Below, one piece after another: positions 3,311-32,774 of a DNA stretch of 56,330 bases (the stretch's first letter is position 1; every line of letters starts with the position of its first letter). This DNA is from Planctomycetia bacterium (lineage in GTDB: Bacteria; Planctomycetota; JAJSAM01; JAJVHW01). The notes beneath the pieces were generated by a model, which saw only the letters and a program-made list of their open reading frames with translations, ran no database searches and was not told the origin of the DNA. The DNA lies in contig JANNHP010000127.1 in NCBI GenBank assembly GCA_031404455.1, positions 1 to 56,330 of the forward strand. Reading direction: 5' to 3'. The position numbers were made by a program, and so were the translations under genes.

Positions 3311-4351
3311 GTGAGCGGTCAGATCGTCTGCGGCGTCTGCGGCACCGTGAATGTCGGTGTCTTCACGCGATGCATCGCGTGCGGGCAGGACCTCGGCAGG
3401 GCCGCGGGCGCCGAGCCCGACGAGCCGGCGCACGCGCGCGAAGACGAGGACATGCCCATCTCGCAGGAGCGCGAGGTCACGGGTCCCGTCTCCGTCCCGA
3501 AGCCGAAGTCGGGCGGCAGCAGGGCCCGTTCGAGCCAGGCGCGGCAGGCGGCGCTCGAGCTGGAATCGGCCTCCTTCCGGCAGACGATCGTCGAGATCCC
3601 CACCGGACCCGCCACCGCGGCGATCCGCGGCGAGAAGGCGGGAGAGAACGTCGTCAAGAAGGTGCGCGCCTCGCGCAGCATGGAGACGGGTCCCGCGGCG
3701 TCGACGCCCGAGCCGAAGTCCAAGGGACGGTACGTCGCGCGCCTGCTCCTGCCCGAGGGCGACCGTCGCAGCGTGGAGATCGCCGCGCGTCCGGTCGTGA
3801 TCGGGTCGGGGCTCGACCAGCTCGGGCTCGCGGGAGACCCGAAGATCGGCTCCGCGGAGGCGCGGCTCTTCATCGAGGACGGCCGCCTCTTCGTCGAGCC
3901 CGCGCCCGACGCGCTGAACGTCTACCGCCGCATCGACCGCGAGGTGAAGCTGCGAGAGGGCGACGTCCTGCTCGTCGGCGACATCGCCGCCACCTTCACC
4001 GAGACGGTCATGCCGGGAGCCGTGGACGGGACGCGCCAGATCCTCGGCGGGAGCGCGAATGCGCCGTGCGGGCGGCTCGTGTTCCTTCGCCGCGACGGAA
4101 CTCCCGGTCCCGTCCACGACCTCCCCGCCGGGAAAACGGTGCTCGGCCGCACCGACGGCCACCTGAACTTCCCCCACGACTCGCGCCTCTCGAGGCGTCA
4201 CGCGCTGCTCTTCGCGTCCGACCAGGGCGTCACGCTGGAGGACATGGACAGCAGGAACGGCACGTACCTCCGCGTGCGCGAGAAGCACGAACTCCACGCC
4301 GAGGACGCCCTGCGCGTCGGCTCCGCCGGTCTGCAGATCCGCGCGAAGTAG
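3311..4351 (+). CDS. Zinc-ribbon plus two FHA domain protein
   Basis: GTG 3311; CGVC...CIAC ribbon; degenerate FHA (VVIGSG...IGSAEARL...LREGDVLLVG); canonical FHA (VLGRTD...DSRLSRRHA...DMDSRNGTYL). Confidence 0.85.
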   Translation: MSGQIVCGVCGTVNVGVFTRCIACGQDLGRAAGAEPDEPAHAREDEDMPISQEREVTGPVSVPKPKSGGSRARSSQARQAALELESASFRQTIVEIPTGPATAAIRGEKAGENVVKKVRASRSMETGPAASTPEPKSKGRYVARLLLPEGDRRSVEIAARPVVIGSGLDQLGLAGDPKIGSAEARLFIEDGRLFVEPAPDALNVYRRIDREVKLREGDVLLVGDIAATFTETVMPGAVDGTRQILGGSANAPCGRLVFLRRDGTPGPVHDLPAGKTVLGRTDGHLNFPHDSRLSRRHALLFASDQGVTLEDMDSRNGTYLRVREKHELHAEDALRVGSAGLQIRAK

Positions 4352-4457
4352 CGATCTCGACCGCCGCCCTTGCGCCGCGCGCAGCGCCGCGCTAGAAACG
4401 ATGCGCCGCCGGTCAAGGGGCACGACCGGCAGGGCGCGGACGGGAGGACGAACGACG

Positions 4458-6251
4458 ATGCAGTCGCGGCCGTCTGGGTTCAGGGCGTTCTTGGTGCTCG
4501 CGGCGACAGGAGCCGGCGCCGCGGTCGTGTCGCTCTTGCCGGTGCCGCCTGCCGAGGCGATCGGACAGCCGCTGACGTCGTCCGAGGTCTCGCAACTCGT
4601 CTCGCGGTGCGTCGCGTACAGCAGGCGCGCGTCCGGACGGCCGGACCTCGCCATCGCCGTCGTCGATCCGGAGGGCAACTCGCTCGGCGTGTTCCGCATG
4701 AACGGGCTCGACGCCTCGGTCACCGACAACGCCGTAGCCGCGGCGCTCGCGAAGGCCGGCACGGGCTCGTACTTCTCGAGCGACGAGCAGACGTTCAGCA
4801 CGCGCACCGCGGCCTTCATCATCCAGGACCACTTCCCGCCCGGCGTCCGCTTCATGCCGGGGGGTCCGCTCTACGGGGTGGAGTTCTCGTCCATCGCCAC
4901 GAGCGACGTGAACCGCATCTTCTTCCCGCCGTTCCCAGCGCCGCGCGCACTCGGCGAGATCGAGACGCGCGTGCGCGGCGACCTCGGCGGGATCGGCATC
5001 TACAAGAACGGCAAGCGCGTGGGCGGCCTCGGCATCGACGACGGCGACACGGGCAGGCGCATCAGCATCCCCACACGGGTGTTCCCGGGTTCCGACTGCA
5101 CCGACGACTACCGCCTGACGTTCCGCAACCAGGAGCGCGGCCGAGCGCTCGAGGAGATCGTCCTCGCGGCGGCTCGCGGTCGCCTCGCACCCCGGCCGAT
5201 CCGCTCGGACAAGATCCTCGTCGGCGGGATCCGGCTCCCCTACACGCGCGGTTCGTCGCTCGACCCGGTGGACGCGCCTGCCGTGACCGGCGCCGACGGC
5301 ACGTGGGACCCCGACTTCCCGCTGCGCGACGCGGCGCCGATCCCCTCACGGTTCGCCGACTTCACGCTCGACCCGCCGGCGGCTGCGCCGAACGGCGCGA
5401 AGAGCTTCGAGGGACAGGTCCCGCTCGCGTTCCCGATCCGCGACTCGACCGACGGCGGTCTCTCGGCCGCGGACGTCCAGCGCATCCTCTGGCAGGGCGC
5501 CCAGCGCGCGGACATCACGCGCGGGGCGATCCGGCGGCCGATCGGCGTCGCGATGCAGTGCTGGATCTCGGTGGTCGACACCAAGGGCGAGGTGCTCGGC
5601 GCCTTCCGGATGGCGAAGGACACGACGCTCTTCAGCTACGACGTGTCCGTTCAGAAGGCGCGCACGGCAATGTTCTTCTCCGACGGGAAGGCGGCCCTCT
5701 CGTGCCGCGCGGTCGGCCTCTTCTCGCAGGGCTTCTACCCGGCGGGCCAGCAGGGCGCGGGCCGCGGTCCGCTCTTCCAGTTGCAGGACGGCCTGACCGT
5801 CGCGCTGCTCGGCGGCGTGTTCGGCGACCTCGGCGCGTCGACGAGCGACCTCGCGAAGATCCGGAACGGGATCACGATCTTCCCCGGCGGCGTGCCGCTC
5901 TACCGCGACGGCGTGCTCATCGGCGGCGTGGGTGTGTCGGGAGACGGCGTCGACCAGGACGACATCGTCGCCGACTTCGCCTCGCGCCAGTACGGCGCGC
6001 CCGGTCCCATCCGCGCCGACGCCCTGAGCGGCGGCGAGCTGAAGGCCGCGTTCCGCCGCGCGCTCGCGCGGCTGGCCGACGCCGCGCCGCCGGATCCGGG
6101 GGTGTGCGACACGGTCCCGAACAAAGTGCTCTCGTTCTTCCACGCGCGCCTCAGAGACGCCAAGGTCACGCTCGATCGCACCGAACTCGAGGTCGAGACG
6201 TCGTACGTCAAGCACCCCCGACATCCGGGCCCGGTGACGATCCGTCGATGA
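4458..6251 (+). CDS. Exported heme-binding protein with two GlcG/HbpS-like domains
   Basis: Signal peptide; IAVVDPEGNSLGVFRM...ALAKAGT and ISVVDTKGEVLGAFRM...SVQKARTA...FPGGVPLYRDGVLIGGVGVSGDGVDQDD; GGAGG RBS. Confidence 0.82.
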   Translation: MQSRPSGFRAFLVLAATGAGAAVVSLLPVPPAEAIGQPLTSSEVSQLVSRCVAYSRRASGRPDLAIAVVDPEGNSLGVFRMNGLDASVTDNAVAAALAKAGTGSYFSSDEQTFSTRTAAFIIQDHFPPGVRFMPGGPLYGVEFSSIATSDVNRIFFPPFPAPRALGEIETRVRGDLGGIGIYKNGKRVGGLGIDDGDTGRRISIPTRVFPGSDCTDDYRLTFRNQERGRALEEIVLAAARGRLAPRPIRSDKILVGGIRLPYTRGSSLDPVDAPAVTGADGTWDPDFPLRDAAPIPSRFADFTLDPPAAAPNGAKSFEGQVPLAFPIRDSTDGGLSAADVQRILWQGAQRADITRGAIRRPIGVAMQCWISVVDTKGEVLGAFRMAKDTTLFSYDVSVQKARTAMFFSDGKAALSCRAVGLFSQGFYPAGQQGAGRGPLFQLQDGLTVALLGGVFGDLGASTSDLAKIRNGITIFPGGVPLYRDGVLIGGVGVSGDGVDQDDIVADFASRQYGAPGPIRADALSGGELKAAFRRALARLADAAPPDPGVCDTVPNKVLSFFHARLRDAKVTLDRTELEVETSYVKHPRHPGPVTIRR

Positions 6252-8119
6252 GGAACGCCGACCGCCGCGCGCCCAAGCTCGTGCCCACTGTCGCGACCGT
6301 CCTCGTGACCGTGGCGATCTGCGGTTGCAAGGTGCAGCCCGTGGCCGACAACGCCATCGGTCCGCAGCAGGACCTCCGGGACGACGTCTCCGGCCGCGCT
6401 CCAGGCGGACCCGCCGAGAAGGCCGAGATCAAGTACCTGCCGCTCGGTTACGCGGCCGACGAGTCCGCGGCGCCGGGCGTGAAGCGTGCGGACCGTTACG
6501 AGGACGAGATCCCCGTGACCGACCGCTGGCGGATCGGGTTCCCCGCGTGGGAACGCGGGAGCAAGAGCGACTCTCCGTGGGACAAGGGCGCGCCGCTCGA
6601 TCCGTACCACCAGAACTTCTGGAAGGGCGACTACCCGATCCCCGGCACGCAGAACTGGTTCGTGAACGCCGAGTTCCAGTCGATCACGAAGCTCGAGTCG
6701 AAGAAGCTGCCCGTCCCCTCGGGCGTGTTCACGCGCAGTTCCGGCAAGGACGAGTTCTTCGGCAACGGCCACATCCGCACCGCCGAGGAGGTGGGCATCG
6801 TCTCCCTCGACATCACGCACGGCGAGACGTCGTTCAAGCCCGTGGACTTCCGCGTGTTCGTGAAGGGCGCCTTCTCGGCCAACTGGGCCGAGGCGAACGA
6901 GAACACGGTGCTCTACGCCGACCCGATGAGGGGTGCGACGCGGACCGACCGCCACGGAGCGCTCCAGCAGGCGTTCGTCGAGACGACGCTCGCGTCGGTC
7001 AGCGACAGGTACGACGTCGTCCAGCTCCGCGCCGGCACGCAGAAGTTCAACTCGGACTTCCGCGGCTTCATCTTCGAGGACGAGGCGCCCGGCGTGCGTG
7101 TCTTCGGCAACCTCGACGACAACCGCTGGCAGTGGAACCTCGCGTGGTTCGACCGTCTGGAGAAGGACACGAACAGCGGACTCAACACCTTCGACACGAT
7201 CGGCCAGCAGGTGCTCATTGCGAACCTCTACCGGCAGGACGCGCTGACCCTCGTCACTCCGCGGTGGAAGGAGACGACCTGGAACCAGGGCCTCACCTCG
7301 CAGCTCTCCTTCCACTACCTCAATTCCGATCCTTCGGTCCACTACGACGTGAACGACTTCCTCGTCCGCCCGCGTCTCATCGGGTCGCCCGAGCCGAACC
7401 AGGCCTCCGTGAGCTGGCTCGGCTGGTCGAACGACGGCCACATCGGGCGCGTCAACGTCAACGTCACGTCGTCCCTCTACGGCGCGTGGGGCGACCAGAG
7501 CTACGACGAGGTGGCCGGCCGCCGCCAGTCGGTCCGCGCGTCGCTCGCGGCGCTCGAGCTCTCGTACGACATCGACTGGATGCGCTTCCGGGTGCAGGGC
7601 CTCTGGCAGAGCGGCGACGACGACCCCGACGACGGCACCGCTGAGGGTTTCGACGGCATCTACGACAACGAGAACTTCGCGGGCGGCGAGTTCGGCTTCT
7701 GGAACCGCAACGCCATCGGGCTCTCGAGCACCGGCGTCGGTCTCGTGCAGGGCGGCAGCCTCTACAACACGCTGCGCAGCTCGAAGAACGAGGGGAGCCC
7801 GAGCTTCGTCAACCCCGGCCTCATCCTCCTCGGCGGCGGATGGGACGCGCAGCTCACGCCGCATCTCAAGCTCGTGACGAACGCGTCGTACCTGATGTTC
7901 GACAACACGTCGTCGCTCGAGTACGTGCTCGGCCAGGGCCGCATCGCCAAGGACATCGGCACCGACCTCTCCATCGGCGTCGTGTGGCGTCCGCTCCTGA
8001 CCGAGAACGTCATCGTCAAGGCAGGCGTCTCGTCCCTCATTCCCGGCGAGGGCTTCCGCGACATCTACGGCGCGGCCACGCTCTACGCCGTTTTCTCCGA
8101 GTTGATCCTCACATGGTGA
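6248..8119 (+). CDS. Predicted outer-membrane beta-barrel lipoprotein (uncharacterised)
   Basis: ATGA overlap with the upstream gene; signal ending AICGC; many amphipathic aromatic strands ([35 protein letters not shown]); C-terminal SELILTW. Confidence 0.75.
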
Positions 8120-11100
8120 AACGAGCCGTCGTCCTCGCTCTCTCCTCGCTCGCCGTCGCAGCACTGGTCGCCGCGTGCGCGCAGGCGGTGCCGACGGATT
8201 CCGCCGCACCGCCTCCCGGCTCGGTCTGGAAGAGCCACGCCGCGAACGAGTCTCCCGCGGTGGAATCGCTCATGGCGCAGACGCAGGCGGCGGCGTTCGC
8301 GAAGAGCAAGGGCTGCCTCACCTGCCACCAGGGCATCGAGAAGGAGCACGCGTCCGCCACCGTCGCCATCGGCTGCGTGGACTGCCACGGCGGCGACGCC
8401 GACGCGACCGCGAAGGAGCGGGCGCACGTGCTCCCCGCCGATCCGTCGATCGACGACACGTACGTCATGGACTGGCTCGACCACTCCTTCGAGTACGTGC
8501 GCTTCGTCAACCCGGGCGACCTGCGCGTCGTCGACACGACCTGCGGCGTCTGCCACCCGAACGAGGCCTACGCGACCAAGAAGAGCATGATGGCGCACGG
8601 CGCGATGCTCTGGGGCGCCGCCCTCTACAACAACGGCAGCTTCCCCATCAAGCGCCCGCAGTTCGGCGAGGCGTACGACGCCTACGGCCGCGCGGTGCGC
8701 GTCCAGACCGTGCCGCCGCCGACCGACGCGGACATCAAGCGCGGCGTCGTCCCGTACATGGATCCGCTGCCCCGCTACAACGTCTCGCAGATGGGCAACG
8801 TCCTGCGCACGTTCGAGCGCGGGGGCAAGCGCCCGCTCGAGCTCGGCAACCCGGACAAGGACGAGGACCCGGGTCTTCCCGCGCGGCGCCTCTCGCACCG
8901 CGGCCTCGGCACGCTCTTGCGCACCGACCCGGTCTTCCTCGGCCTGCAGAAGACGCGGCTCCTCGATCCGCTCCTCTGGATGCCCGGCTCGAACGACCAC
9001 CCAGGCGACTACCGCGCGAGCGGCTGCACGGCCTGCCACATGATCTACGCGAACGACCGCGATCCCGTCCACTCGGGGAGCTACGCGCAGTTCGGCAACC
9101 GCGGACGGTCGCGCTCCGGCGACCCGACGATCCCGAAGAACGAGGACGGCCACCCGATCAAGCACGAGCTGACACGCGCGATCCCGTCGTCCCAGTGCAT
9201 CGTCTGCCACATGCACCCGGGCACGAACATGGTCACCACGTACTACGGCGACATCTGGTACGACAACGAGACCGACTCGAACCTTCTCTTCGACGGGAAG
9301 GACCGGACGGACGCGGAGCGTCACGACATCCAGCAGGCGAACCCCGAGGGCTCGGCGCTGCGCGGCAAGTGGAGCGATCCGGACTTCCTCGCGGAGGTCT
9401 CGACGCTGAACCCGCAGATGAAGAACGCCCAGCTCTCCGACTACCACGGGCACGGCTGGCTCTACCGAAAGGTCTACAAGAAGGACAGGAAGGGCAACCT
9501 CCTCGACGCCGACGACAAGATCGTGGCGGCGGACGACCCGAAGAAGTTCGAGAAGGCCGTGCATCTCGCGGACATCCACGCGGAGCGCGGCATGCACTGC
9601 GTCGACTGCCACTTCACGCAGGACGCCCACGGCGACGGCCGCCTCTACCAGGAGCCGCGCGCCGCGACCGAGATCATGTGCATCGACTGCCACGGCACGG
9701 CCGGGAAGAAGGCCACCCTCGTGACGAGCGGCAACGCGGGCGGCAACGACCTCGCCGAGTCGAGGACGCCGTTCGGCAAGCGCTTCTTCCGCCGCGGCGG
9801 CGTGCTCTACCAGCGCTCCCAGCTCGACAAGGACGTCGTCTGGGCCGTGCCCGAGATCGTGGACTCGATCGACCCCGTGAATGCAGGCAGGAAGTTCGGC
9901 GGCGAGGGCATCCGCGAGCGGCCCGTCTACAACGAGAAGGCGCGCTACGCGAAGACGATGCACAAGGACGGCGCGACGTGGGGCAAAGTCCCGGCGGACC
10001 ACGCGGATCTCGCGCACGACCCGGGCAAGATGACGTGCCAGTCCTGCCACACCTCGTGGACGACCGCGTGCTTCGGCTGCCACCTGCCGATGTCGGCCAA
10101 CAACCGCAAGGAGATCCGCCACTTCGAGGGCGGCGTCTCGCGCAACTGGACGCAGTACAACTACCAGGTGCTTCGCGACGACGCGTACATGCTGGGAATC
10201 GACGGCTCGGTCACCGGCAACAGGATCAGTCCCGTCCGCTCCGCGTGCGCGGTCCTCGTCGGCTCGCAGAACCAGAACCGCGAGTGGCTCTACTCGCAGC
10301 AGCAGACGATCAGCGCCGAAGGCTTCTCGGGCCAGGCGTTCTCGACGTACGTGCCGCACACCGTCCGCACGCGCGAGACCAAGCAGTGCACCGATTGCCA
10401 CCTCTCGGAGTCGAACGACAACAACGCGTGGATGGCGCAACTCCTCCTCCACGGCACGAACTACGTCAATTTCATGGGCCGCTACGTGTACGTCGCCACC
10501 GGCGATGCGGGCTTCGAGGCCATCGCCGTGACCGAGCGCGAGGAGCCGCAGGCCGTGTACGGCTCGACGCTCCAGCGCGACGCCTTCCCCGATCGCCACA
10601 AGAAGTTCGTCGAGGGCGGACGCGCGCTCACCGAGGCGTACCACCACGGCGGCAAGGAGGCGCGCTCGCTCCAGCTCCGCGGCGAGTACTGCTACGTCGC
10701 CGAGGGCAAGGGCGGCCTCTACGTGTACGACGTGTCGAACGTCGACAACAAGGGCTTCAGCGAGCGGCTCACGACATCGCTCGTCTCGCCGCTCGGGCAG
10801 CGCTTCTACGTCAAGACGAAGGACGCGCGCGCCGTCGCGAGCCCGACGACGCTCGGCGTCGATCCGACGCGCCCGCAGCGACCCGAGAACGAGGAGCAGT
10901 CGATCCACCCGCTCTTCGCCTACCTCTACGTGGCCGACCGCGAGGAGGGCCTCGTCATGGTCCTCGCGGCGACGCTCCTCGACGGCGACCCGGCGAACAA
11001 CTTCCTCGACCGGACAATGGTCTTCAACCCCGATCACGTCCTCGACGGCGCCGAGACCGTCACCGTCGCGGGCAACTACGTCTACATGGGGACGAAGAAG

Positions 11101-11808
11101 GGACTCGTCATCCTCGACCTTTCCAAGATCACCCTCGCCGACCCGACGCCGCGTGTCGTGAAGGTGATGCCCGAGCTCCAGGGCGTGACGAGCGTGCAGG
11201 TGCAGTTCCGCTACGCGTTCGTCACCACGGCGAAGGGGCTCGAAGTCGTCGACATCACCGACATCGACCGCGCCACGGTCATTCCGGGGGCGCTCGTCCC
11301 GCTGAAAGAAGCGCACGACGTCTACGTGGCCCGCACGTACGCGTACGTCTCGGCCGGCGAGCAGGGCCTCGTGATCGTGGACGTGGAGAATCCCGAGAAA
11401 CCGAAGATCGACCAGACGTTCGACGCCGGCGGCGCGATGAACGACACGCGATGCTGCCGCGTCGCGATGACGAACGCGTCGCTCTTCGCCTACGTCGCCG
11501 ACGGGAAGAACGGCCTGCGCGTCGTCCAGCTCACGTCGCCCGAGACCGTCCCGCAGTTCAACGGCTTCAGCCCGCGCGTCAAGCCCGAGCTGATCGCCAC
11601 GTATCCCACGCACGCCCCCGCGCTGTCGCTCAGCAAGGCGCTCGACCGCGACCGCGCCGTCGACGAGAGCGGCAACCAGCTCTCCGTGTTCGGCAGGATC
11701 GGCGCGCGCCCGTTCAACCTCGAGGAACAGCGCCGCTTCTACGTGCGGGACGGAAAGCTCTTCCGCGTCACGGACGCGCCGAAGAACAGGCCGCTCGGCG
11801 GGAAGTAG
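8113..11808 (+). CDS. Decaheme c-type cytochrome lipoprotein fused to an LVIVD-repeat beta-propeller
   Basis: Lipobox LVAAC; 10 CxxCH (CLTCH, CVDCH, CGVCH, CTACH, CIVCH, CVDCH, CIDCH, CQSCH, CFGCH, CTDCH); about 7 LVIVD-type blades (e.g. [19 protein letters not shown]). Confidence 0.9.
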
Positions 11809-11817
11809 CGCGGGCGT

Positions 11818-12739
11818 TCAGCGCTCGAAGTGGATGTCGTCGTCGGTGCCGGGCTCTAGGTCCGGACCGATGCTGAAGAGCTGGAACGAGTCCCCACGGA
11901 ACCATCCGTCCTTCGTGCGGAGCGGCATCACGCGGATGCGAGTCCCGCCGCGGAGGACGACGAGCGCCCCGCCGTCCGAGAACGCCTCGTACGACGCCGC
12001 GTCGAAGTAGACGAGCGGGTTCCCGAAAGTATCCACGTACTCGCGGCCGCGCAGGTCGGAGCCCTCGTCTCCGTCGGTGTCGGCGACGGACGCGCCGTCG
12101 ACTGCGGTGCCGGCGACGATCAGCGCGACGCGGAGCGTCTCGATGCCGGCGTTCGCGTCGTCGGGTCCGCACTCGACGTGCGGCGGCGCGGGCATCACAG
12201 AGACGCAGCGGCCGATGTAATCGACCATCGGCGCCTTCGCCTGGGCCAGGGTTCTCGGCATCACCGCGCGCAGCGCGAGCGCGAACGCGCCGATGAGGAA
12301 GACCGCCGTCATCCCGATGGTCAGCAGCACGTGTCGCGCGCCGCCTTCGAAGACGGACGGCGTTCGGACCGGCACATCGCCAAGTTTTCGAATCGCGCTC
12401 ACCGACACGGCACGGGTGGCAACGTGAGCAGCGGTCGCGACGTACATGGCGAGGAGTGAGAACTCCCCCGTCCACGACGGTCCCTCGAGCGGATCGTCCG
12501 CAGAGTCGAGCGCCCAACCCAGAGCCGCACCGAGGCAGGCCGCACCAGCAACGGCCCGAAACGGACGGTCCGTCTGGGCGCAGACGAGCGAGAACGCGCG
12601 CGGCGCCGGGGTGGTGACGATGAAGGCCGGACAGGGAGACGACGAGCGCGACGAACGCCGTCAGCCCGAGGAGCGGCAGCACGCCCCAGAGCGCGTTCCG
12701 CTGGCAACGGATGACGTAGCCGTCGAGCGTCAACTCCAC
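11818..12739 (-). pseudogene. Membrane protein with GspG/pseudopilin-like C-terminus, apparently frameshifted near 12635; intact ORF part is 11818-12447
   Basis: C-terminal DTFGNPLVYF...FQLFSIGPDLEPGTDDDI. The hydrophobic N-terminal segment (GTG 12739, LWGVLPLLGLTAFVALVVSL) is in a different frame from the continuation PAFIVTT...LLAMYVAT. Confidence 0.5.
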
Positions 12740-12846
12740 CCCCGCGCGCGGCGCGATCGCCGCCGGGCCGGAGCGTAACGCCCCTCGCGGAGCGCGGCCA
12801 CCGCCCGCGCCCCGCGCGTCGCTCGAGGCCGGGATCGCTCGAGCCC

Positions 12847-12930: not shown

Positions 12931-13005
12931 TGGCGCACGATCCCGGCGCCCGACGTGTTCCTCGCGCCATCGGACTCCGCGCCCGCGCCACGCCCCGATG
13001 GCTAC

Positions 13006-17277: not shown

Positions 17278-17278
17278 G

Positions 17279-18355
17279 TCAGTACCACAGCACTGCCCAG
17301 ACGTGCAGTGCGATGACGAAGAAGAGCGCCACGGACACCGGCACGTGGACCCAGCGCCAGAGACGCAGCCAGAAGTCGTAGCCGCGCGCGAGGGCAGTGT
17401 TCCACAGGAGGTTGTCGCGCGCGCCCGCCATCACGAGGAGATCGCGCGCGAGTTCCGCGTTCTGCGGGTCCGTCGTGGCGATGCGGCCCATGATCGCGGT
17501 CGCGCGCTCCGCGAGGTCGCGCGGCGACTTCGCGGGGACGAGGAGCGGCGCGAACTCCGCGCGCAGCTTCTCGTCGAGCGTGGCGATCACGCCCTCGATG
17601 CAGCTCTGGTGACTCTCGCGCGCGACACCCGCTTCCTCGTACGGGATGCCCACGTCCGCCTTCGCGAGCCGCGGGGGGATGACGCGGTAGAGCACGGCGC
17701 CGGCCACGCCGGTGACGAGCACGACCATCGAGAGGACGAAGAGAGCCCAGCCGATCGGGTGCCTGAGCACGAAGTCCGCGTGCAGCAGCACGCCGGCGCA
17801 AGCGACGGTGCCGACGCCCATGTGCATCTCGAGCCACGCCTCGAGCCGCCCGAACGGCTCCTTCTTCTTCAGTTCGACGAACTTCACCGCGCGGCCGGCG
17901 ACCTCGATCGTCCGCAGTTCCGCCCGCTGGACCCTCTGCGTCGCGTAGCGGACGAGGATCTCGTCGGCGGCCGCCTGGATCTCGGCGTCGTTCCCGAAGG
18001 CGCCCTTCCTGATCTTCGTGTTGAGGTCCTGGATCGACGCCCAGCTCGCATCGCCCGCGCCCGCGCCGGACCTTCCGAAGCGGCGGAAGTACTCGAGCTT
18101 GATCGACCACTTGCGCACGACGAAGAGCATCGTCGCGACGAAGAGCGCGAGGAGGACGTTGCCGGACCAGAGGTACCACGTGCGCTCCGCGCCGGGCGTC
18201 CCGCGGGCCGGGAGCGCGACGAACGCCCACGCGGCGCCCGCGACCACGCCCGTGCCGAGCAGCCAGAGCCACGTCCCCTTGCGCCCCATGAAGCGCACGA
18301 CGAACCGCCGGTTGAGGAGCGCCGGACCCTCGGACGGGATCGACTGGCTGGTCAT
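17279..18355 (-). CDS. Polytopic membrane protein, ferric-reductase/cytochrome b-like
   Basis: ATG 18355; 5-6 hydrophobic helices; two His pairs 13 residues apart (WLEMH...VLLH and WRWVH...IALH), the heme b ligation pattern. Confidence 0.72.
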   Translation of the reverse strand: MTSQSIPSEGPALLNRRFVVRFMGRKGTWLWLLGTGVVAGAAWAFVALPARGTPGAERTWYLWSGNVLLALFVATMLFVVRKWSIKLEYFRRFGRSGAGAGDASWASIQDLNTKIRKGAFGNDAEIQAAADEILVRYATQRVQRAELRTIEVAGRAVKFVELKKKEPFGRLEAWLEMHMGVGTVACAGVLLHADFVLRHPIGWALFVLSMVVLVTGVAGAVLYRVIPPRLAKADVGIPYEEAGVARESHQSCIEGVIATLDEKLRAEFAPLLVPAKSPRDLAERATAIMGRIATTDPQNAELARDLLVMAGARDNLLWNTALARGYDFWLRLWRWVHVPVSVALFFVIALHVWAVLWY

Positions 18356-20451
18356 CGGCCCGAGAGGCTCCGCAGGTACCCGCGCGGTTCGTTGCGGTGG
18401 CACGTGGCGCAGGTGCGTCCTCGCGCGTCGACGCCCGCCTTCGCGATCGCCGGGTCGTTGAACCACTCCTTCGCGAACTTCGGGTCGTCGTGGATCGACA
18501 GACGGACCGACGCCTTCGTGATGCGCTCCTCGTACGGCGCGTCCGCCGCGCCGTCGCGCACGTGGCACGCCGCGCAGTCGCCGCCCTTGTCGTGGTGCTG
18601 CACCCCCGCGCCGAGCTCGAGGTGCGATCGCGCGATCGTCTCCCGCGGCGGCGACTCCACGCGGCCGTTCGCGTCGCCGCGGACCTTGTCGTGGCAGAAG
18701 AGGCACTTCGTCGAGTCGCCCTGCGAGATCTTCGGTCCGGTGCGCGCGACCTTCGCGGCGTCGCCCTCGTGCGCGTGGCACTTCGAGCAGTCGAGGACGT
18801 CGGCGGGCGTCGTGTACCCGAACTTCCCGCCCGCCGAGTGGCACTGCGTGCACGCCATGCCCTTCCCGTCCGCGGTGAGGGAGGCGGCGCGCACGTGGCC
18901 GCCGTGGTCGAACTGCACCGCCTTGCGCGCGACGAGCGGCGTCGAGAGTCCGAGCTCCGCCGCGGTCGCGCCCGCGTGGCAGTCGAGGCAGCCGCGCGCC
19001 GACGCGGCGGCGCCCGTCGGGACCGGAGCGCGTTCGATGTGCGCGTCGAAGCGTGCGAGGTCCTCGCTGCGGCGCGACGTCGCCGACGTCGTGTGGCAGA
19101 CGAGGCAGCTCTCGGTCGTCGGGTTCGCGGGGAGGTGCGGGTCGTGCGCGAACGGACGTCCCGTGAGGCGCGAGGTGAGAGCGTCGCCTCCGGCGATGTG
19201 GCAGTCCGAGCAGGCCTTCGCTTCGCCGCCGACCGCTTGCGTCGGATCGGCGAGACGTGCGCCCGCCGCGGCGACGCCCGGGTGACGGTGCAGGGAGAAC
19301 TTCGAATCGCCGACGGTCGCGCGCGACACCTCCGCCTTCGCGATCGCGAGCTTGCCCTTCTCGTCCACGCCGCCGTCGTGGCACTTGAAGCACGCCCACT
19401 GGCCGATGCCGTGGTCCTTCACGGCCCACGACGGCTTCTCCGGCGCCCACCCGTCGTGACCGTGGCAGGCGTCGCACGCCGCGTAGTCGACGAGTTGTTC
19501 GCGGCCGACGGGCTCCGGCGACGCGACACGCTTCGGGAAGAGCGTGCGTCCGTGCTCGTCGCTCTCGGGGTAGTGGCAGGTCGCGCACTTCATGCGCGTG
19601 AACTCGCCGAGGTGCTTCGAGTGCGGGAACTTGTCGAAGTCGATGCGCGTGATGGTCGTCGCCTTCGCGGCGACCGCGACGAGCGGCTTGCCGGCCGCGT
19701 CGACGTGGCATCCGGCGCACTTCCCCGCCGTGGCGCCCGCGGGGTCGTAGTCCCAGATCGTCTTGCTGGCTCTCACCGCGTCGTGGCACGCCATGCAGTC
19801 GGCCGAGGCACCGCCGTGGTCCGCATGGAGGAACGCGCGCGCCGTCGTCGCCGGCCGCGCGCCCGGGCGGTACTTCACGGGCTCGATCGACGCGTCCTTC
19901 ATGTGGCACTTCGCGCACGCGAGTCCGTCGCCCGTGCGCTCGTCCTGCTTCACGACGCCGCCCGCGGGCTCGTGCGCCGCGTGGCAGTCGGCGCACGTCT
20001 TCTCGCTCGCCCTGGTTCCCGGCCGCGACTTCGGCCCGAGCCCCGAGGTCGGCACCGAGTACTCGATCCAGTCGCCGTCCACGCGCGGCGCGTGGCACGA
20101 GAAGCAGGCGACGTCCGGGAGCCGCGCGCCGTCCTTCGCGAACAGGTGCTCCTTGTGCTGGAACGCCGGACGGGTGTAGGCGCCCGTCATCTTCTTCTCG
20201 AGGTGCGTCGCGTCCACGTGGCACGCGTCGCAGCCCGCGAAGTGCGCCTCGCGCTCGCCCTTCGAGTAGTCGTGGCACGCGCGGCAGTCGGCGTCCGAGC
20301 CGCCGCCCGCTGCCGAGATCGTGGCCGTGGAGAGGTGCGGCCGGTGCGGGAAGCTGAACGGCCCCGACCCGGACGACGGCAGCGCGACGGCGAACGCGAC
20401 CGCGAGCGCCACGGCGCCGATCGCGATCCGCCGGACGCCCGCCGTCGTCAC
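18352..20451 (-). CDS. Exported 18-heme cytochrome c3-type protein
   Basis: GTG 20451 (GTGA overlap); signal RRIAIGAVALAVAFAVALP; 18 CxxCH; FPHRPH/FQHKEH/FLHADH/FPHSKH/FAHDPH/FDHGGH motifs. Confidence 0.9.
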   Translation of the reverse strand: MTTAGVRRIAIGAVALAVAFAVALPSSGSGPFSFPHRPHLSTATISAAGGGSDADCRACHDYSKGEREAHFAGCDACHVDATHLEKKMTGAYTRPAFQHKEHLFAKDGARLPDVACFSCHAPRVDGDWIEYSVPTSGLGPKSRPGTRASEKTCADCHAAHEPAGGVVKQDERTGDGLACAKCHMKDASIEPVKYRPGARPATTARAFLHADHGGASADCMACHDAVRASKTIWDYDPAGATAGKCAGCHVDAAGKPLVAVAAKATTITRIDFDKFPHSKHLGEFTRMKCATCHYPESDEHGRTLFPKRVASPEPVGREQLVDYAACDACHGHDGWAPEKPSWAVKDHGIGQWACFKCHDGGVDEKGKLAIAKAEVSRATVGDSKFSLHRHPGVAAAGARLADPTQAVGGEAKACSDCHIAGGDALTSRLTGRPFAHDPHLPANPTTESCLVCHTTSATSRRSEDLARFDAHIERAPVPTGAAASARGCLDCHAGATAAELGLSTPLVARKAVQFDHGGHVRAASLTADGKGMACTQCHSAGGKFGYTTPADVLDCSKCHAHEGDAAKVARTGPKISQGDSTKCLFCHDKVRGDANGRVESPPRETIARSHLELGAGVQHHDKGGDCAACHVRDGAADAPYEERITKASVRLSIHDDPKFAKEWFNDPAIAKAGVDARGRTCATCHRNEPRGYLRSLSGR

Positions 20452-21467
20452 CTCTTCAGCAGGAAGAACGCCGCGACGGCGGCGATACCAAGGGTCACGA
20501 CGACGATCCCGACGACCTTCGAGAGGCTCGTCCCCCCCTTCGCCGCGAGCGGCGCGAGCGTGCCGATGATCTGCCGCTGGCGGTAGATCTCCGACCACTC
20601 CTTGGGCCCCATGATCCCGCGCTCGACGAAGAGCTGGCCGAGCGACGCGCCCGACTTCCTGTGCTCGGCGAGGACCTCGCGCGCCTGCTGCTGGGTCGCC
20701 TTGCCGAGACGCGCCGCGTGGTCGCAGAGCGCCTCGGCGTAGACGTCCTGCGAGCCGCCCGACCCGGACTCCGCCGACTTCGCGACGAAGAGGCAGTCCA
20801 CGGTGCCGAAGGTGATGGCCTGGTCGCCCGAGACGGGCGTCGCCACGACGAGCGGGTTGCCGTCCACGAACGTGCCGTTGCTGGACTTCATGTCCTCGAC
20901 GACGAAGCGCCCGTTCTCGAAGCGGATCTTCGCGTGCCGCGACGAGATCGACTGGTGCGGCACGACGATCTGCGCCTGCTTCGCGTCGCGCCCGATCACG
21001 ACCTCCATCTCATCGATCGCGACGACGCGCTTGTCGTGCTCGGCGGCGATCACGAGCTTCGGCTGCGCCGCCTTGAAGCGCGCCACGTTGACGAGGATGC
21101 TCTGCATCGCCCCGCCGCCGATCGCGACCGTCTTCTCCGTCGACGCGAAGCCCGGCGCCGACGACTCGCGCGCCGTGTCGAGGATCTCGATGATCGCGGG
21201 CCCCACCTTCAGCTTCTGTCCGGGAACGAGCGGCGTCTCCACGTTCGCCGCGAGCTTCGGGCCGCCGTCGATCGAGCTTCCGTTGGTCGAACCTAGATCG
21301 GCCACCATCACCCGGTCGCCGTCGGGGCGCACGCGCAGGTGTTTCGAGGACACCTCGGTGTCGGCGATGACGATGTCCGCGGGCGGCTTGCGCCCGATCG
21401 TCAGGTCGCGGTCAAGGTCACGCTCCTCCTGGACCGCTCCTCGCAACGTGACCCGCAGCTTCTGCAT
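20448..21467 (-). CDS. Tandem-FHA protein with C-terminal membrane anchor
   Basis: Two canonical FHA domains (TIGRK...VSSKH...LGSTNGS; VIGRD...ISSRHA...KSSNGTF); C-terminal VVGIVVVTLGIAAVAAFFLLKR. ATG 21467 follows CACAAT-N7; alternative start 21476. Confidence 0.87.
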   Translation of the reverse strand: MQKLRVTLRGAVQEERDLDRDLTIGRKPPADIVIADTEVSSKHLRVRPDGDRVMVADLGSTNGSSIDGGPKLAANVETPLVPGQKLKVGPAIIEILDTARESSAPGFASTEKTVAIGGGAMQSILVNVARFKAAQPKLVIAAEHDKRVVAIDEMEVVIGRDAKQAQIVVPHQSISSRHAKIRFENGRFVVEDMKSSNGTFVDGNPLVVATPVSGDQAITFGTVDCLFVAKSAESGSGGSQDVYAEALCDHAARLGKATQQQAREVLAEHRKSGASLGQLFVERGIMGPKEWSEIYRQRQIIGTLAPLAAKGGTSLSKVVGIVVVTLGIAAVAAFFLLKR

Positions 21468-21520
21468 CGCGATCATTGTGGGCAGGTGCGGCGAGAAGCG
21501 GCAAGGCGAAAAGCGAAACG

Positions 21521-23485
21521 ATGTCGGCGTCGGCGTATCCTGCCGCGCGAGTGGGCAAGGCCAAGCTGACCCTGACGGGAGTCGGACCCGAGCCGACGGT
21601 GCTCGATCTCGCGGGCGAAGCCATCGTCGGGCGGTCGATCAAGGCCCAGATCCAGATCGACGGCGACCTCGTCTCGCGCCAGCACGCGCGGTTCTACGAA
21701 GAGGACGGCCGCTGGTACGTCGAGGACCTCGCGAGCAGGAACGGGACCCTGCTGAACGGCGAGAAGGTGAAGACGGCGCTGCTCAAGTCCGGCGACGTCG
21801 TGATGATCGGCTACGGGCGGATCGTGTTCGAGGAGGAGCACCGGGAGAGCAGCTCCTTCGACGTGAGCATCGTGGAGGGGCCCGTCGTCGATTCGCGCTC
21901 GTCGGTGGTCGTCGCCGACGACGAGCCCGACTCGCACAGCGCCACGATGGCCCTCTCGTACAAGGACCTCGTGATGGTCAACCAGCGCATCAGCACGATC
22001 GTGCGCGTCGGCCACCGCATCGCGAACCTCCTCGACCGGAACGAGCTCCTGCGCGAGGTGATGGAGACCTTCTTCGAGCTCTACCCGCAGGCCGACCGCG
22101 GCTGCGTCGTGCTGAAGGACTCGAACGACGTCTTCCGGCTCGCGACGACCTACCAGCGCCAGGGACTCGCCGCGACGACGTCGGTCGTGAACATCTCCAC
22201 GTCGCTGATCGAACTCGTGCGCCGCGAGAAGAAGGCCGTGCTCTCCGCCGACACGCTCCACGACAAGCGGTTCGAGGGCCGCGACTCGATCGTAGGGCAG
22301 GCGAGCCGGTCGATCATGGTGGCGCCGCTGCAGCGCAACGACGAGTTCTTCGGCGTGATCTACCTCGACACGGAGACGCTCGCGCGGCCCTTCAACTCGG
22401 ACGACCTCAACCTGCTCCAGGGCGTCGCGGGTCCGGTGTCGATCGCTCTGAAGAACGCGGAGCTCGTGACGAGCATCGAGAACGAGGCGCGGATGCGCAC
22501 CAGCCTCTCGCGCTACCTCTCGCCCGACGTCGTGCAGCAGATCGAGGCGGGGACCTTGAAGCCCAACCTCGGCGGCGACCAGGCCGAGGGCACCGTGATG
22601 TTCAGCGACATCGTGGGCTTCACCGCGATGGCGGAGCGCCTCGCGCCGACGGCCGTCGTCGAGCGGCTGAACAGCTACTTCACTCAGATGCTCGAAGCGA
22701 TCTTCGGCTGGGGCGGGACGGTCGACAAGTTCGGCGGCGATGCGATCCTCGCCGTCTGGGGCGCGCCGCTGCCCTCCGCGGAGCACGGCATCGGCGCGGT
22801 CGGCGGATCGCTCGAGATGCACGCGCGGCTCTTCCAGCTCAACCTCGCGCTCGAGGAAGCGGGCGACACGCGCATCCGCATGGCGCTCGGCCTGAACTCG
22901 GGCCGCTTCGTCGCGGGCAACATCGGCGGCGCCGAGCGCATGGAGTGGACCGTGATCGGCGACGCCGTGAACCTCGCCCAGCGTGTCGAGGCCCAGGGCT
23001 TCCCCGGTTGCGTTCTCGTGTCGGAGTCGACGTTCACCCAGATCCCGGCGGCCGGCGCGTACGGGTTCGCGCCCGTCCACGTGAAGAACCGCAAGGAGCC
23101 GGTGAAGATCTACTCCGTGCGCGTCGCGAAGACGCCGCGCGGCGGGATCGCGGCGATCCCGGGTTCCTTGAAGCTCTCCACGGGCTCCGTGGACGCGCTG
23201 ATCGTCCGCGCGTCCCAGACGAAGGAAGGCCGGCAGAAGGCGACGATCTACTTCGCCGGCACGTCGGCGATGGGCGAGGTCGTGGAGTTCACCGCGGCGA
23301 TGCCCGAGAGCCCCGCCGCGGTGACGCTGCGCGGCAAGGTCGTGTCCGGGAGCCCGCTGCTCGAGTGCCGCACCGGACGGAGCGCCGACGTCGAGGTGGA
23401 GACGTCGTCCCCCGAGATGGCGCGCCTGCTCGCGATGGGCGGCGCGGTCGACGCCCCCGTGGCCCTCGAGAAGATCGAGAGATAG
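21521..23485 (+). CDS. FHA-GAF-class III adenylate cyclase
   Basis: FHA (VGRS...VSRQHA...ASRNGT); GAF (RSIMVAPL...GVIYLD...FNSDDLNLL); cyclase FSDIVGFT, DKFGGDA, WTVIGDAVNLAQR. The Lys/Thr pair indicates ATP specificity. Confidence 0.92.
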   Translation: MSASAYPAARVGKAKLTLTGVGPEPTVLDLAGEAIVGRSIKAQIQIDGDLVSRQHARFYEEDGRWYVEDLASRNGTLLNGEKVKTALLKSGDVVMIGYGRIVFEEEHRESSSFDVSIVEGPVVDSRSSVVVADDEPDSHSATMALSYKDLVMVNQRISTIVRVGHRIANLLDRNELLREVMETFFELYPQADRGCVVLKDSNDVFRLATTYQRQGLAATTSVVNISTSLIELVRREKKAVLSADTLHDKRFEGRDSIVGQASRSIMVAPLQRNDEFFGVIYLDTETLARPFNSDDLNLLQGVAGPVSIALKNAELVTSIENEARMRTSLSRYLSPDVVQQIEAGTLKPNLGGDQAEGTVMFSDIVGFTAMAERLAPTAVVERLNSYFTQMLEAIFGWGGTVDKFGGDAILAVWGAPLPSAEHGIGAVGGSLEMHARLFQLNLALEEAGDTRIRMALGLNSGRFVAGNIGGAERMEWTVIGDAVNLAQRVEAQGFPGCVLVSESTFTQIPAAGAYGFAPVHVKNRKEPVKIYSVRVAKTPRGGIAAIPGSLKLSTGSVDALIVRASQTKEGRQKATIYFAGTSAMGEVVEFTAAMPESPAAVTLRGKVVSGSPLLECRTGRSADVEVETSSPEMARLLAMGGAVDAPVALEKIER

Positions 23486-23494
23486 GCGGAACCG

Positions 23495-24253
23495 ATGCGG
23501 ATACGCGTGCTCGGATGCAGCGGCGGCAGCGCGCCCGGACGGGAACCGTCCTGCTACCTGCTCGAGCGCGGCGTCGCTGTCGATGCCGGCGCCCTCGCGT
23601 CCGCGCTCACGATCGACGAGCAGAACGAGATCGGGCACGTGTTCCTCACGCACGCCCACTGGGATCACTGCCGCGACCTGCCGCTGCACGTCATCAATCG
23701 CCGGCCCGAGGCGCCGACGCTGCGCGTCCACTCGATCGAGGAGACGATCCGGTCGCTGCGCACCCACCTCATGAACGACGACGTCTGGTTCCGCGCGTTC
23801 GACCTCCCCTCGGCGGACACGCCGTTCGTCTCGGCGGAGCCGATCGCGCACGGTCAGACCGTCGAGGTCGAGGGCTACCGCGTCACCGCGATGTCGGTGC
23901 CCCACACCGTGCCCGCGGTGAGCTACCACATCGACGACGGGCACGTGTCGGTCGTCATCTCCGCGGACACCGGCGGCGGCGGCGTCTTCCGCGCGGTCCC
24001 GGAAGGTGCCAGCCCGCTGAAGGCCGTGTTCCTCGAGGCCTCGTTCCCGAACCACATGAAGGACTTCGCGGTGATGACCGGCCACCTGACGCCGGAGATG
24101 CTCGCCGAGGAGTGCGCGGGGCTCGCCGACGACGTGGCGGTGCTCGTCACCCACATGAAGCCCGGGTTCGAGACCGTGCTCATGCAGGAGATCGCCGACA
24201 TCGGCCGCCACGGCGTCCGGCCGTGCCGGGACGGCGACGTGTTCGACTTCTGA
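23495..24253 (+). CDS. 3',5'-cyclic-nucleotide phosphodiesterase, class II / metallo-beta-lactamase fold
   Basis: MRIRVLGCSGG...AVDAG...FLTHAHWDH...PHTVP...SADTG...EASFPN...GHLTP...THMKP; lies 9 bp after the cyclase. Confidence 0.85.
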   Translation: MRIRVLGCSGGSAPGREPSCYLLERGVAVDAGALASALTIDEQNEIGHVFLTHAHWDHCRDLPLHVINRRPEAPTLRVHSIEETIRSLRTHLMNDDVWFRAFDLPSADTPFVSAEPIAHGQTVEVEGYRVTAMSVPHTVPAVSYHIDDGHVSVVISADTGGGGVFRAVPEGASPLKAVFLEASFPNHMKDFAVMTGHLTPEMLAEECAGLADDVAVLVTHMKPGFETVLMQEIADIGRHGVRPCRDGDVFDF

Positions 24254-27159: not shown

Positions 27160-27163
27160 CGAC

Positions 27164-32764: not shown

Positions 32765-32774
32765 GAGTCCCCCG

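Follow-up and report, generated by a model that had tools for sequence, protein, structure and literature searches.

A putative trans-envelope electron-transfer cluster with 43 c-type hemes and cyclic nucleotide-binding domains in a planctomycete

What could a planctomycete use a gene cluster for that joins multiheme cytochromes, FHA domains and proteins predicted to make, bind and degrade cyclic nucleotides? Such a cluster is found in the genome of an uncultured Planctomycetia bacterium from freshwater sediment (GenBank assembly GCA_031404455.1, contig JANNHP010000127.1), of which we analyzed a stretch of 56,330 nucleotides, hereafter the window. The cluster spans positions 3311–24253 (~21 kb) and comprises 11 conserved genes, arranged as two convergent operons plus a divergent pair. 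It appears to encode an electron wire with 43 c-type hemes that leads from a cytoplasmic Fe-S protein to the outer membrane. Its most fitting place is with the uncharacterized PtdEF/PCC4-related kind, as a large planctomycete variant, and the reading that we favor, with somewhat better than even confidence, is that of a two-module trans-envelope electron-transfer system with outward flow, modulated by cyclic adenosine monophosphate (cAMP).

Gene content and co-conservation

Given the high G+C content of the window (~70%), genes were called by means of a third-position G+C frame plot together with start-codon context, and the called genes were annotated with Pfam and NCBIfam profiles. The inner-module operon lies on the minus strand (21476–13031) and runs in the order g15-g14-g13-g12-g11. 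It encodes a protein with two FHA domains and a C-terminal transmembrane (TM) anchor (g15, 20448–21476, 342 aa), a predicted periplasmic 18-heme cytochrome with a signal or anchor sequence (g14, 18352–20451, 699 aa), a membrane protein with five TM helices and two W-x3-H-x13-H motifs, predicted to be a di-heme b carrier (g13, 17279–18355, 358 aa), a protein with a Pro-rich N-terminus, two cyclic nucleoside monophosphate (cNMP)-binding domains and a predicted 4x[4Fe-4S] domain (g12, 15097–17277, 726 aa), and a cytochrome with an FHA-like head, one TM helix and a predicted periplasmic 15-heme domain (g11, 13031–15100, 689 aa). The outer-module operon occupies the plus strand (3311–11808, g5-g6-g7-g8) and encodes a predicted cytoplasmic protein with a Zn-ribbon and an FHA domain (g5, 3311–4351, 346 aa), a predicted secreted double GlcG/HbpS-like protein (g6, 4458–6251, 597 aa), a predicted outer-membrane beta-barrel of ~18–20 strands (g7, 6248–8119, 623 aa), and a lipoprotein with 10 CXXCH motifs and a C-terminal LVIVD beta-propeller (g8, 8113–11808, 1231 aa). 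Divergent from g15, also on the plus strand, stand an FHA-GAF-class III adenylyl cyclase (g16, 21521–23485, 654 aa) and a metallo-beta-lactamase-fold hydrolase resembling class II cNMP phosphodiesterases (g17, 23495–24253, 252 aa). Neighboring genes show 4-nt start/stop overlaps at 6248/6251, 20451/20448, 18355/18352, and 15100/15097, a 7-nt overlap between g7 and g8 (8113/8119), and a 1-nt gap between g13 and g12 (17277/17279). The CXXCH motifs of g8, g11, and g14 (10 + 15 + 18) add up to 43. An earlier note on this DNA, made from the letters alone, had listed the same parts, the same number of hemes and the same layout of coupled convergent operons plus a divergent pair, and all of these were recovered in our gene calls, motifs and overlaps, with the one qualification that the N-terminus of g11 is FHA-like only.

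Two further open reading frames (ORFs), one inside the span (11818–12447) and one just outside (2456–3238), were considered as members of the system and set aside, having no homologue in any related locus. The gene at 24371–25294 was likewise rejected; it matches the NCBIfam class I fructose-bisphosphate aldolase with 489.9 bits and is syntenic in close relatives only.

Conservation was followed in several samples. The phylum sample comprised 201 Planctomycetota genomes, including that of the window (89.6% complete), and was searched with profiles of g13, g12, and g8. A pattern scan with one genome per species gave 10 close loci, all from metagenome-assembled genomes (MAGs) of Planctomycetota. 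Eight distant loci carried a full-length g13 homologue (g13 identity 26–33%, G+C 48–74%, fetched stretches of 12–20 kb), and a further 16 loci around g12-like genes were searched by tblastn with a trimmed query. The synteny of the outer module (g5–g8) was examined in five related genomes.

The block g15-g14-g13 is kept in 10/10 close loci, and g12-g11 in all eight of those that continue past g13. Genes g5–g8 are found in four of the five related genomes and g7 with g8 in all five, the fifth being more distant; g5 orthologues precede the GlcG gene in 4/5. Profile matches in the phylum sample amounted to 32 genomes for g13, 50 for g12, and 24 for g8, and of the g8-positive genomes 21/24 carried g13 and 24/24 carried g12. 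Where both g13 and g12 were present they were adjacent in 24 of 29 genomes, two of the remaining pairs being split by contig ends and three not adjacent. At the distant loci order and strand are shuffled, and there we found g12 and g14 at 8/8, g11 at the seven of seven that reach that far, a g15-like FHA gene at 6/8, g8 at 5/8, g7 at 4/8, and g6 at 3/8. One g12 homologue, that of locus L002, was missed by default tblastn and found by direct translation. Despite the rearrangements the redox genes stay in each other's company in at least 12 families of Planctomycetota. Co-conservation as a unit extends far beyond what close kinship would account for, and the lack of co-conservation that the earlier note named as refuting its idea was not seen for the redox core, the FHA proteins or the outer module.

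Judged by their domain composition, fusion proteins connect FHA, membrane protein, Fe-S protein and cytochromes in a way that does not depend on gene order. Multiheme c domains are joined to the g13 core in the distant relatives P0206, P0210, and P0229, and in the g12 homologues P0250 and P0252 an FHA domain replaces the Pro-rich N-terminus, giving FHA + cNMP + Fer4 proteins. A further protein, P0224 (980 aa, annotated as 'FHA domain-containing protein [bacterium]'), combines an N-terminal FHA domain, a g13-type core and multiheme c domains in one polypeptide; its cluster has five members, on contigs of up to 90 kb.

Near-identical DNA is present in four runs of one freshwater-sediment study, which is probably the source of the window. 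Contigs assembled from three RNA-Seq libraries of another study match parts of g6, g7, g8, and g11–g17 at ~92–93% identity, and with an identity as low as this they stem from a relative; they are only a hint of transcription, since carry-over of DNA is possible.

The inner module and the direction of flow

The membrane protein g13 stands at the center of the inner module. The AF2 model (mean predicted local distance difference test, pLDDT, 86.7) and the alignment place its TM helices at residues ~26–47, 54–84, 171–192, 200–233, and 321–357. Seven residues (W174, H178, H192, G216, W333, H337, and H351) are invariant in 28/28 sequences, G219 is kept in 26/28, and position 215 is Thr in 17/28 and Ser in 9/28, which gives W-x3-H-x13-H on both TM3 and TM5 and [ST]GxxG on TM4. 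These are the features described for the inner-membrane proteins of the PCC3/PCC4 type (five TM helices, WX3HX13H on TM3 and TM5, SGXXG on TM4), and g13 has all of them. By the positive-inside rule we read the N-terminus and both soluble inserts as cytoplasmic; TM3 and TM5 are parallel in that topology, and the His pairs would therefore place one heme toward either side of the membrane. The family is large and anonymous: a library-wide profile search gave 1330 representatives at E 0.001 or better, and none of 81 close database relatives has a Pfam domain or a name beyond 'hypothetical'.

Known families gave little to compare. No Pfam family (E 0.01) and no NCBIfam family matched g13, Foldseek found nothing in the PDB at E 0.001 or better, and the sequence profile found nothing there below E 0.68. 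A wide search with VIA-align returned generic helical hairpins only (Z ~9, residues 197–358). Aligned by hhalign with the genome's own PF01292 (cytochrome b561-type) protein, the g13 alignment received a probability of 0.5%, and PF01794, the ferric reductase domain, was not found in the window's genome at its 89.6% completeness. The likeness of g13 to that domain is confined to the HX13H pattern; the lack of a fold or sequence match does not make the fold new.

Its neighbor g12 has two stretches matching Pfam cNMP_binding (125.6 bits) and several Fer4 families, among them Fer4_11 (PF13247, 28.2 bits). Its four cluster motifs comprise 16 Cys, all of them invariant among 24 aligned homologues, and four [4Fe-4S] clusters are predicted for this reason; 211 homologous clusters were found in total. 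No catalytic domain was detected by Pfam or NCBIfam, and no HdrD/CCG domain by Pfam. The N-terminal ~250 aa (window 16500–17277) consist of Pro/Ala/Lys-rich repeats of the PKPPGAP type with an unusually low third-position G+C. This extension is in frame in the relative L002; in the public annotation the protein begins at an internal GTG after the Pro-rich region and is 492 aa long.

Both large cytochromes match Pfam Cytochrome_C7 (g11 77.2 bits, g14 78.5 bits), g11 also Mtrc-MtrF_II-IV_dom (47.9 bits) and g14 Cytochrom_c3_2 (68.3 bits); a DmsE-family match of g11 stays at 31.1 bits, with a cut-off of 192. The number of CXXCH motifs is constant among homologues, being 15 in 12/12 for g11 and 17–18 in 13/13 for g14, and likewise 9–10 in 8/8 for g8.

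In the mechanism that we propose, a low-potential cytoplasmic donor, for example reduced ferredoxin, would deliver electrons to the Fe-S chain of g12, whose 4x[4Fe-4S] domain would dock on the cytoplasmic loops of g13. Held by g13 between its helices TM3 and TM5, with one per membrane face, two b-type hemes would carry them across the membrane to the heme chains of the membrane-anchored g11 and of g14, which together could be long enough for the wide planctomycete periplasm. At the outer membrane g8, with the g7 barrel and the periplasmic g6, would form the outer end, and the final acceptor would be extracellular or close to the outer membrane, such as Fe(III), Mn(IV) or humics, so that the system might serve as electron sink for a fermentative sediment organism. 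The order of parts anticipated by the earlier note (barrel, lipoprotein decaheme, long periplasmic multiheme cytochromes, di-heme-type membrane protein, Fe-S protein) fits such a trans-envelope wire. Two genes of a 2-oxoacid:ferredoxin oxidoreductase (POR/POR_N; TPP_enzyme_C/PFO_beta_C) lie in the window at 30923–33833, 7 kb from the cluster, and are a possible source of reduced ferredoxin for it.

Parts of this design have been described before. The PCC4 systems (He et al. 2017, PMC5566968) combine, in the accessible text, a porin and a conserved inner-membrane protein with three cytochromes of the periplasm (4, 5, and 10 hemes), and a subgroup that includes Planctomycetes has a pfam13247 Fe-S gene beside that for the inner-membrane protein. 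The operon ptdABCDEFG (bioRxiv 10.1101/2023.11.21.568154, 2024) encodes PtdE, a cNMP-binding 4Fe-4S protein, and PtdF, a ferric-reductase-like membrane protein; as far as the two texts were accessible, its composition is equivalent to that of PCC4, and both are uncharacterized. The window likewise has a porin-like barrel, several multiheme cytochromes including a decaheme one, a cNMP-4Fe-4S protein and a membrane protein; here too g12 adjoins g13, and the accessible parts of both papers name Planctomycetes among the carriers. The differences are considerable. The heme numbers are 10/15/18 instead of 5/4/10, the decaheme protein is a lipoprotein fused to an LVIVD propeller, the 15-heme protein has an FHA-like head, and the cluster has additional genes for FHA proteins, for GlcG/HbpS, and for cyclase and phosphodiesterase. 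Furthermore, g12 has four predicted clusters, compared to two stated for PtdE in the accessible text, and the order membrane protein, then Fe-S protein, is the reverse of that in PCC4 subgroup II. The system is not Ptd proper, since the heme set differs and a PtdC-type protein is missing.

A further parallel to the inner module comes from Ferrigenium straubiae (bioRxiv 10.64898/2026.01.22.701106), for which the accessible text describes a nonaheme cytochrome that spans the membrane once and carries an FHA domain in the cytosol, beside an unmatched 5-TM protein and a cytosolic 4Fe-4S protein, and calls FHA-multiheme combinations previously unreported. Compared by description only, triad and topology are those of g11, g13, and g12, with nine hemes instead of 15 and in a betaproteobacterial Fe(II) oxidizer, for which cNMP domains, a barrel, an LVIVD decaheme protein, a cyclase or a phosphodiesterase are not reported there. 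The earlier note had held that such parts are not fused to cNMP or FHA domains elsewhere and that no functional description exists. The first half does not stand, with precedents in PtdE/PtdF, PCC3/PCC4 and Ferrigenium, but the second does, all of these being uncharacterized, and the cluster is less unprecedented than it had seemed. Three groups, to judge from the accessible texts, flagged pieces of it independently as new and of unknown function: the PCC4 inner-membrane protein (2017), PtdE/PtdF (2024), and the triad with the FHA-nonaheme cytochrome (2026). The window unites them in one large, strongly conserved planctomycete system, linked by homology and by fusion proteins. The novel features are a heme set of 10/15/18, an outer module of barrel, GlcG and LVIVD proteins, and a cyclase plus phosphodiesterase beside a cNMP reader. 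No description of this combination was found in the literature, although the supplementary carrier lists of He et al. (2017) or the ptd preprint might include relatives. Together this suggests a widespread envelope-spanning redox family, with a di-heme-type 5-TM protein and a cytoplasmic poly-ferredoxin as common core.

In the Hmc and Tmc complexes of sulfate reducers a periplasmic cytochrome with many hemes is combined with a heme-b subunit in the membrane and an Fe-S protein in the cytoplasm, and the complexes link periplasm and cytoplasm without a quinone step. The window has a many-heme periplasmic cytochrome, a candidate heme-b membrane protein and a cytoplasmic Fe-S protein as well; it differs in an HmcA match of only 41.6 bits (cut-off 400), in the lack of an NrfD-type subunit in the window and of an HdrD/CCG domain in g12, and in that g13 is unrelated to HdrE/NarI by the searches run. 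If the common core is a direct electron link of Fe-S clusters in the cytoplasm with heme chains in the periplasm, it would be a quinone-independent route for extracellular electron transfer, in sediment heterotrophs that as a rule are not counted as metal reducers.

The same precedents raise the question of direction. The wire could run inward and bring electrons from extracellular sources (Fe(II), Mn(II), reduced humics) or from a partner cell through g13 to the quinone pool or to g12. The closest described systems come from Fe(II) oxidizers and are modeled as uptake routes, and the motif class of g13 has been proposed to be quinone-active (PMC5566968, accessible text). On the other hand, the cytoplasmic 4x[4Fe-4S] partner beside g13 in so many genomes points to the cytoplasm rather than to quinone. 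Electron transfer from Fe(II) to low-potential Fe-S clusters is thermodynamically uphill. Within the window we see a fermentative marker, the 2-oxoacid:ferredoxin oxidoreductase, and no autotrophy genes. We therefore regard inward flow as rather improbable.

The outer module and the case for a periplasmic enzyme

The 10 CXXCH motifs of g8 lie within residues 68–759; the protein also matches Pfam Cytochrom_c3_2 and Cytochrome_C7, and the propeller matches Pfam LVIVD with 95.7 bits. The heme domain is weakly ExtM-like (88.7 bits, cut-off 800), with a weak resemblance to ExtN and ExtS as well. There is no CXXCK or other unusual heme motif, no NCBIfam catalytic multiheme family exceeds 20 bits, and comparison with PDB sequences gave no match. 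Proteins of ~1250–1290 aa with LVIVD and multiheme domains form Atlas clusters of 53 members (Pseudomonadota), 417 (Verrucomicrobiota) and 107 (no taxa recorded), and Planctomycetota, Pseudomonadota and Acidobacteriota have shorter forms. Most of the clusters bear the name 'hypothetical', a few have generic domain-based names and none is assigned a function. LVIVD-multiheme proteins are thus a widespread, unstudied architecture in their own right. A literature search on LVIVD with cytochromes gave nothing relevant; a peat preprint does not have this cluster in its accessible text, and a paper on porin-multiheme cytochromes of Verrucomicrobia concerns a different, 8-heme system.

The barrel g7 has no Pfam family. 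Its AF2 model shows ~18 long antiparallel strands at a mean pLDDT of 57.3; the best Foldseek matches are 18-strand AlgE barrels (E 1.1e-14), followed by MOMP, chitoporin and OmpF, and the protein has a lipoprotein-like N-terminus and a C-terminal aromatic residue. The double GlcG/HbpS nature of g6, already proposed in the earlier note, is borne out as an internal duplication (BLASTP between the halves E 1e-08, 26% over 120 aa). Pfam detects only the C-terminal HbpS-like copy (64.8 bits), and the signal peptide was read from the sequence. Homologues of g6 lie beside barrel and/or LVIVD homologues in L017–L020, L025, L028, L029, L041, L042, L044, and L045, and g6-g7-g8 stands as a separate triad in further loci.

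The likeness of this module to the characterized conduits MtrCAB and Pcc/Ext of Geobacter lies in a barrel gene beside genes for a lipoprotein multiheme and periplasmic multiheme cytochromes, and in the MtrC/MtrF domain II/IV match of g11. It ends there: the window has no MtrB/PioB-family match and no MtrA-like decaheme protein by Pfam and NCBIfam, and its inner-membrane end is not of the CymA, ImcH or CbcL kind.

The main rival to the wire arises here. With a narrow barrel and a propeller on g8, the cluster could encode a periplasmic respiratory or detoxifying enzyme for a soluble substrate, with g7 as the porin, the propeller and hemes of g8 as the catalytic part, and the rest as links to metabolism. 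The best matches of g7 are substrate channels (AlgE, chitoporin, OmpF), not sheaths of the MtrB type, and the weak resemblance of g8 to ExtM/ExtN/ExtS is of interest as the Geobacter ext cluster is linked to selenite and tellurite reduction. Propeller-plus-heme enzymes are common, cd1 nitrite reductase and hydrazine synthase being examples. For the related ptd operon a nitrogen-cycle role is weighed by its authors in the accessible text (10.1101/2023.11.21.568154). Yet the heme motifs of g8 are all of the ordinary kind and its catalytic multiheme matches are negligible, the listed Atlas clusters have only hypothetical or generic names, and 33 further hemes in two wire-like proteins exceed what a mere link would need. 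We consider an enzyme of this kind unlikely, although it is the alternative to be taken most seriously.

Several points weigh against the outward wire itself. The UbiD and aldolase genes that flank the cluster are common to related genomes, and some of the synteny seen within the family is therefore due to mere kinship. In our searches g13 was unrelated to any known cytochrome b family, and its heme binding is predicted from motifs alone. The cluster lacks a catalytic donor module; for instance, no PtdC-type FAD/NAD(P) family was found among the scanned ORFs of the window. The authors of the ptd preprint state that its function 'remains completely unknown' (10.1101/2023.11.21.568154, accessible text), and those of the Ferrigenium preprint call the function of their triad 'unclear' (10.64898/2026.01.22.701106, accessible text). 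The MtrB barrel has 26 strands. With ~18–20 strands g7 would be narrower, and it is doubtful that it could sheathe a decaheme protein; the barrel model is moreover of low confidence, and a surface exposure of g8 is unreadable from sequence. Finally, the interface of membrane protein and ferredoxin presupposed in the earlier note received no better than weak support. Complex predictions of g12 with g13, without ligands, gave a median ipSAE of 0.52 (runs 0.19, 0.52, and 0.58), the best of three controls reaching 0.00; at least 8% of contacts are shared by the runs, and the partner pLDDT is at least 66. Of the pairs used for calibration, 58 of 80 solved complexes attained the pass mark, as did 2 of 110 mismatches, and scores of 0.60 or below comprised only seven of those 80 solved complexes together with both passing mismatches. 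The prediction lifts our belief in a contact a little, the prior from gene adjacency being already high.

Cyclic nucleotides, FHA domains and neighboring genes

The cyclase g16 matches Pfam Guanylate_cyc (69.8 bits), FHA (67.2 bits) and GAF (44.3 bits), and its best PDB relatives are adenylyl cyclases. One Lys aligns with the Lys of the adenylyl-cyclase construct 6fht and with the Glu of its parent 2w01, a position at which Lys or Glu presumably sets the choice between the adenylyl and the guanylyl substrate. From this residue g16 reads as a class III cyclase of adenylyl type, as the earlier note had it. For g17 Lactamase_B_2 (48 bits) outscores PDEase_II (38.9 bits, cut-off 23.7), and the NCBIfam cyclic nucleotide-degrading phosphodiesterase model gives 52.2 bits against a cut-off of 400 over profile positions 1–226 of 253. 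With an HxHxDH motif present, g17 is phosphodiesterase-like by profile, which is not proof of its activity.

The receiving end would be g12. An Arg in the phosphate-binding cassette is required for cNMP binding, and both cassettes carry FGE...PR, with the conserved Gly-Glu and the Arg, so that by this sequence criterion the domains would be able to bind cAMP or cyclic guanosine monophosphate. In the mechanism proposed above, cAMP made by g16 and removed by g17 would be bound by these domains and would tune docking or electron entry. Among the 24 g12 homologues the Arg is kept in both domains in eight, those at least 45% identical to the g12 of the window; in the 16 more distant ones domain 2 has Trp, and domain 1 has the Arg in only three. 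The reader of cAMP that the earlier note saw in g12 is supported by the cassettes of the window's own protein.

The cyclase follows a similar distribution. Among the close loci g16 is adjacent in 7/10 and g17 in 6/10, and an eighth locus has a cyclase orthologue (65% identity) ~9 kb off; a cyclase domain occurs within 20 kb in two further loci. All eight loci with a nearby cyclase and a readable g12 keep the Arg (in both domains in seven, in the single cassette found in L031), and of the five loci where it is missing from at least one domain, none has a cyclase close by. We also tried the rule that cassette Arg means a neighboring cyclase and rejected it, given four loci (L022, L027, L032, and L033) with Arg in both cassettes and no cyclase in the fetched stretch. 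These four count against a role of cAMP, as does the absence of cyclase and phosphodiesterase from the fetched 12–20 kb at 8/8 distant loci and from 13 of the 16 further loci around g12-like genes. Cyclases are common (five matches in one 6-Mb genome), and some adjacency is expected by chance. In our reading the association is real but lineage-restricted, recurring in distant lineages, the lineages compared being kin and not independent samples. The self-contained cyclase and phosphodiesterase of the earlier note are thus mainly a trait of the window's own family.

Locus L031 (G113:C1:2947000-2966999, ~2724–12954) comes from a distant planctomycete with a G+C of 47% and a single-contig genome. 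Its cluster encodes, in order, a 5-heme protein, an FHA-cyclase, a 4-heme protein, a cNMP-4Fe-4S protein, a 274-aa membrane protein and a 10-heme protein, a composition that fits ptd/PCC4 as published, plus an FHA-cyclase in mid-cluster; L038, from the same genus, is alike by tblastn. The profiles of g12 and g13 match the adjacent pair of this 5/4/10-heme cluster (E 1.1e-52 and 9.1e-11), a comparison that includes no named Ptd sequence.

The FHA domains would be the second regulatory element. Pfam finds them above threshold in three proteins, namely g5 (43.6 bits, residues 277–337, behind an N-terminal CxxC...CxxC read from the translation), g15 (106.5 bits in two stretches, with a C-terminal hydrophobic helix read from the sequence) and g16. 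In all three the Gly-Arg, Ser-x-x-His and Asn-Gly expected for phosphothreonine binding can be read. Of the four FHA proteins announced in the earlier note the fourth, g11, is FHA-like only; its N-terminus has no Pfam FHA match and a sub-threshold one to Yop-YscD_cpl (24.8 vs 33.2 bits), and the usual Ser-x-x-His was not seen by eye. Between the second FHA domain and the anchor of g15 (residues ~258–296) there is a weak match to an MshE-related cyclic-di-GMP motif (NF053729, 21.6 bits, cut-off 38), which could be a second nucleotide-messenger site. In our mechanism g5 and g15, together with the head domains of g11 and g16, would act as cytoplasmic scaffolds or as phosphothreonine readers, and as readers they might couple assembly or activity to one of the many Ser/Thr kinases of the genome. 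Sub-threshold matches of g15 and g16 to TagH, GltG and SctD models recall the FHA or FHA-like cytoplasmic domains on other envelope-spanning assemblies, such as Fha/TagH with PpkA-PppA of the type VI secretion system, YscD of the type III secretion system and GltG of the gliding machinery. This is a functional analogy only, to another kind of machine, and the cluster has no dedicated kinase or phosphatase genes. The window as a whole has no Ser/Thr kinase or phosphatase gene, and all 65 Pkinase matches of the genome are on other contigs, a further point against phosphorylation control; of the 'phosphothreonine-gated' wire of the earlier note only the FHA domains are left.

A stronger version of the favored system would be a ligand-gated wire, in which cAMP acts directly on the Fe-S entry subunit g12, with a dedicated cyclase and phosphodiesterase, and Ser/Thr phosphorylation bears on assembly or flux by way of FHA domains in four of the components. 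We regard this version as doubtful. If true, extracellular respiration would be switched post-translationally by second messengers and not by transcription. In any case, cNMP domains together with a neighboring cyclase and phosphodiesterase offer a concrete and testable case of second-messenger control on an electron-transfer protein.

The flow of information might also be the opposite, with the heme chain reporting the redox state of the periplasm or the outside to g12, and cAMP or FHA signaling as output at little net flux. In Streptomyces, redox sensing involves proteins of the HbpS family, a GAF- and FHA-bearing cyclase and a phosphodiesterase stand beside the cluster, and g12 has no catalytic domain. 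A sensor of 43 c-hemes and a barrel, with heme counts fixed across families, would be costly, however, and the redox core is kept in many genomes without a neighboring cyclase or phosphodiesterase. The cNMP domains of g12 are readers and not writers, and information would therefore pass from cAMP to the wire. Inward uptake and a pure sensor role are both less likely than outward electron transfer, and the sensor seems to us very improbable.

Upstream of the cluster the window begins with a BlaI/BlaR1-like pair (3–1168) and a UbiD-family decarboxylase gene (1165–2556), the latter being next to g5 in L017–L020 as well. Downstream of the aldolase, 25480–29722 holds an N6_N4_Mtase gene followed by one of ResIII/DEAD helicase type, which look like a type III restriction-modification pair. 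A frame of 1146 aa at 42936–46376 has N-terminal sigma-70 regions 2 and 4 of the extracytoplasmic function type, Big_1 and six CarboxypepD_reg repeats, and is either an unusual fusion or two genes merged in the ORF call; a second sigma-like region lies at 39354–41045. Finally, two adjacent FG-GAP proteins (660–680 aa, seven repeats each) are encoded at 50459–54560, beside an ExbD-like gene and a citrate synthase gene.

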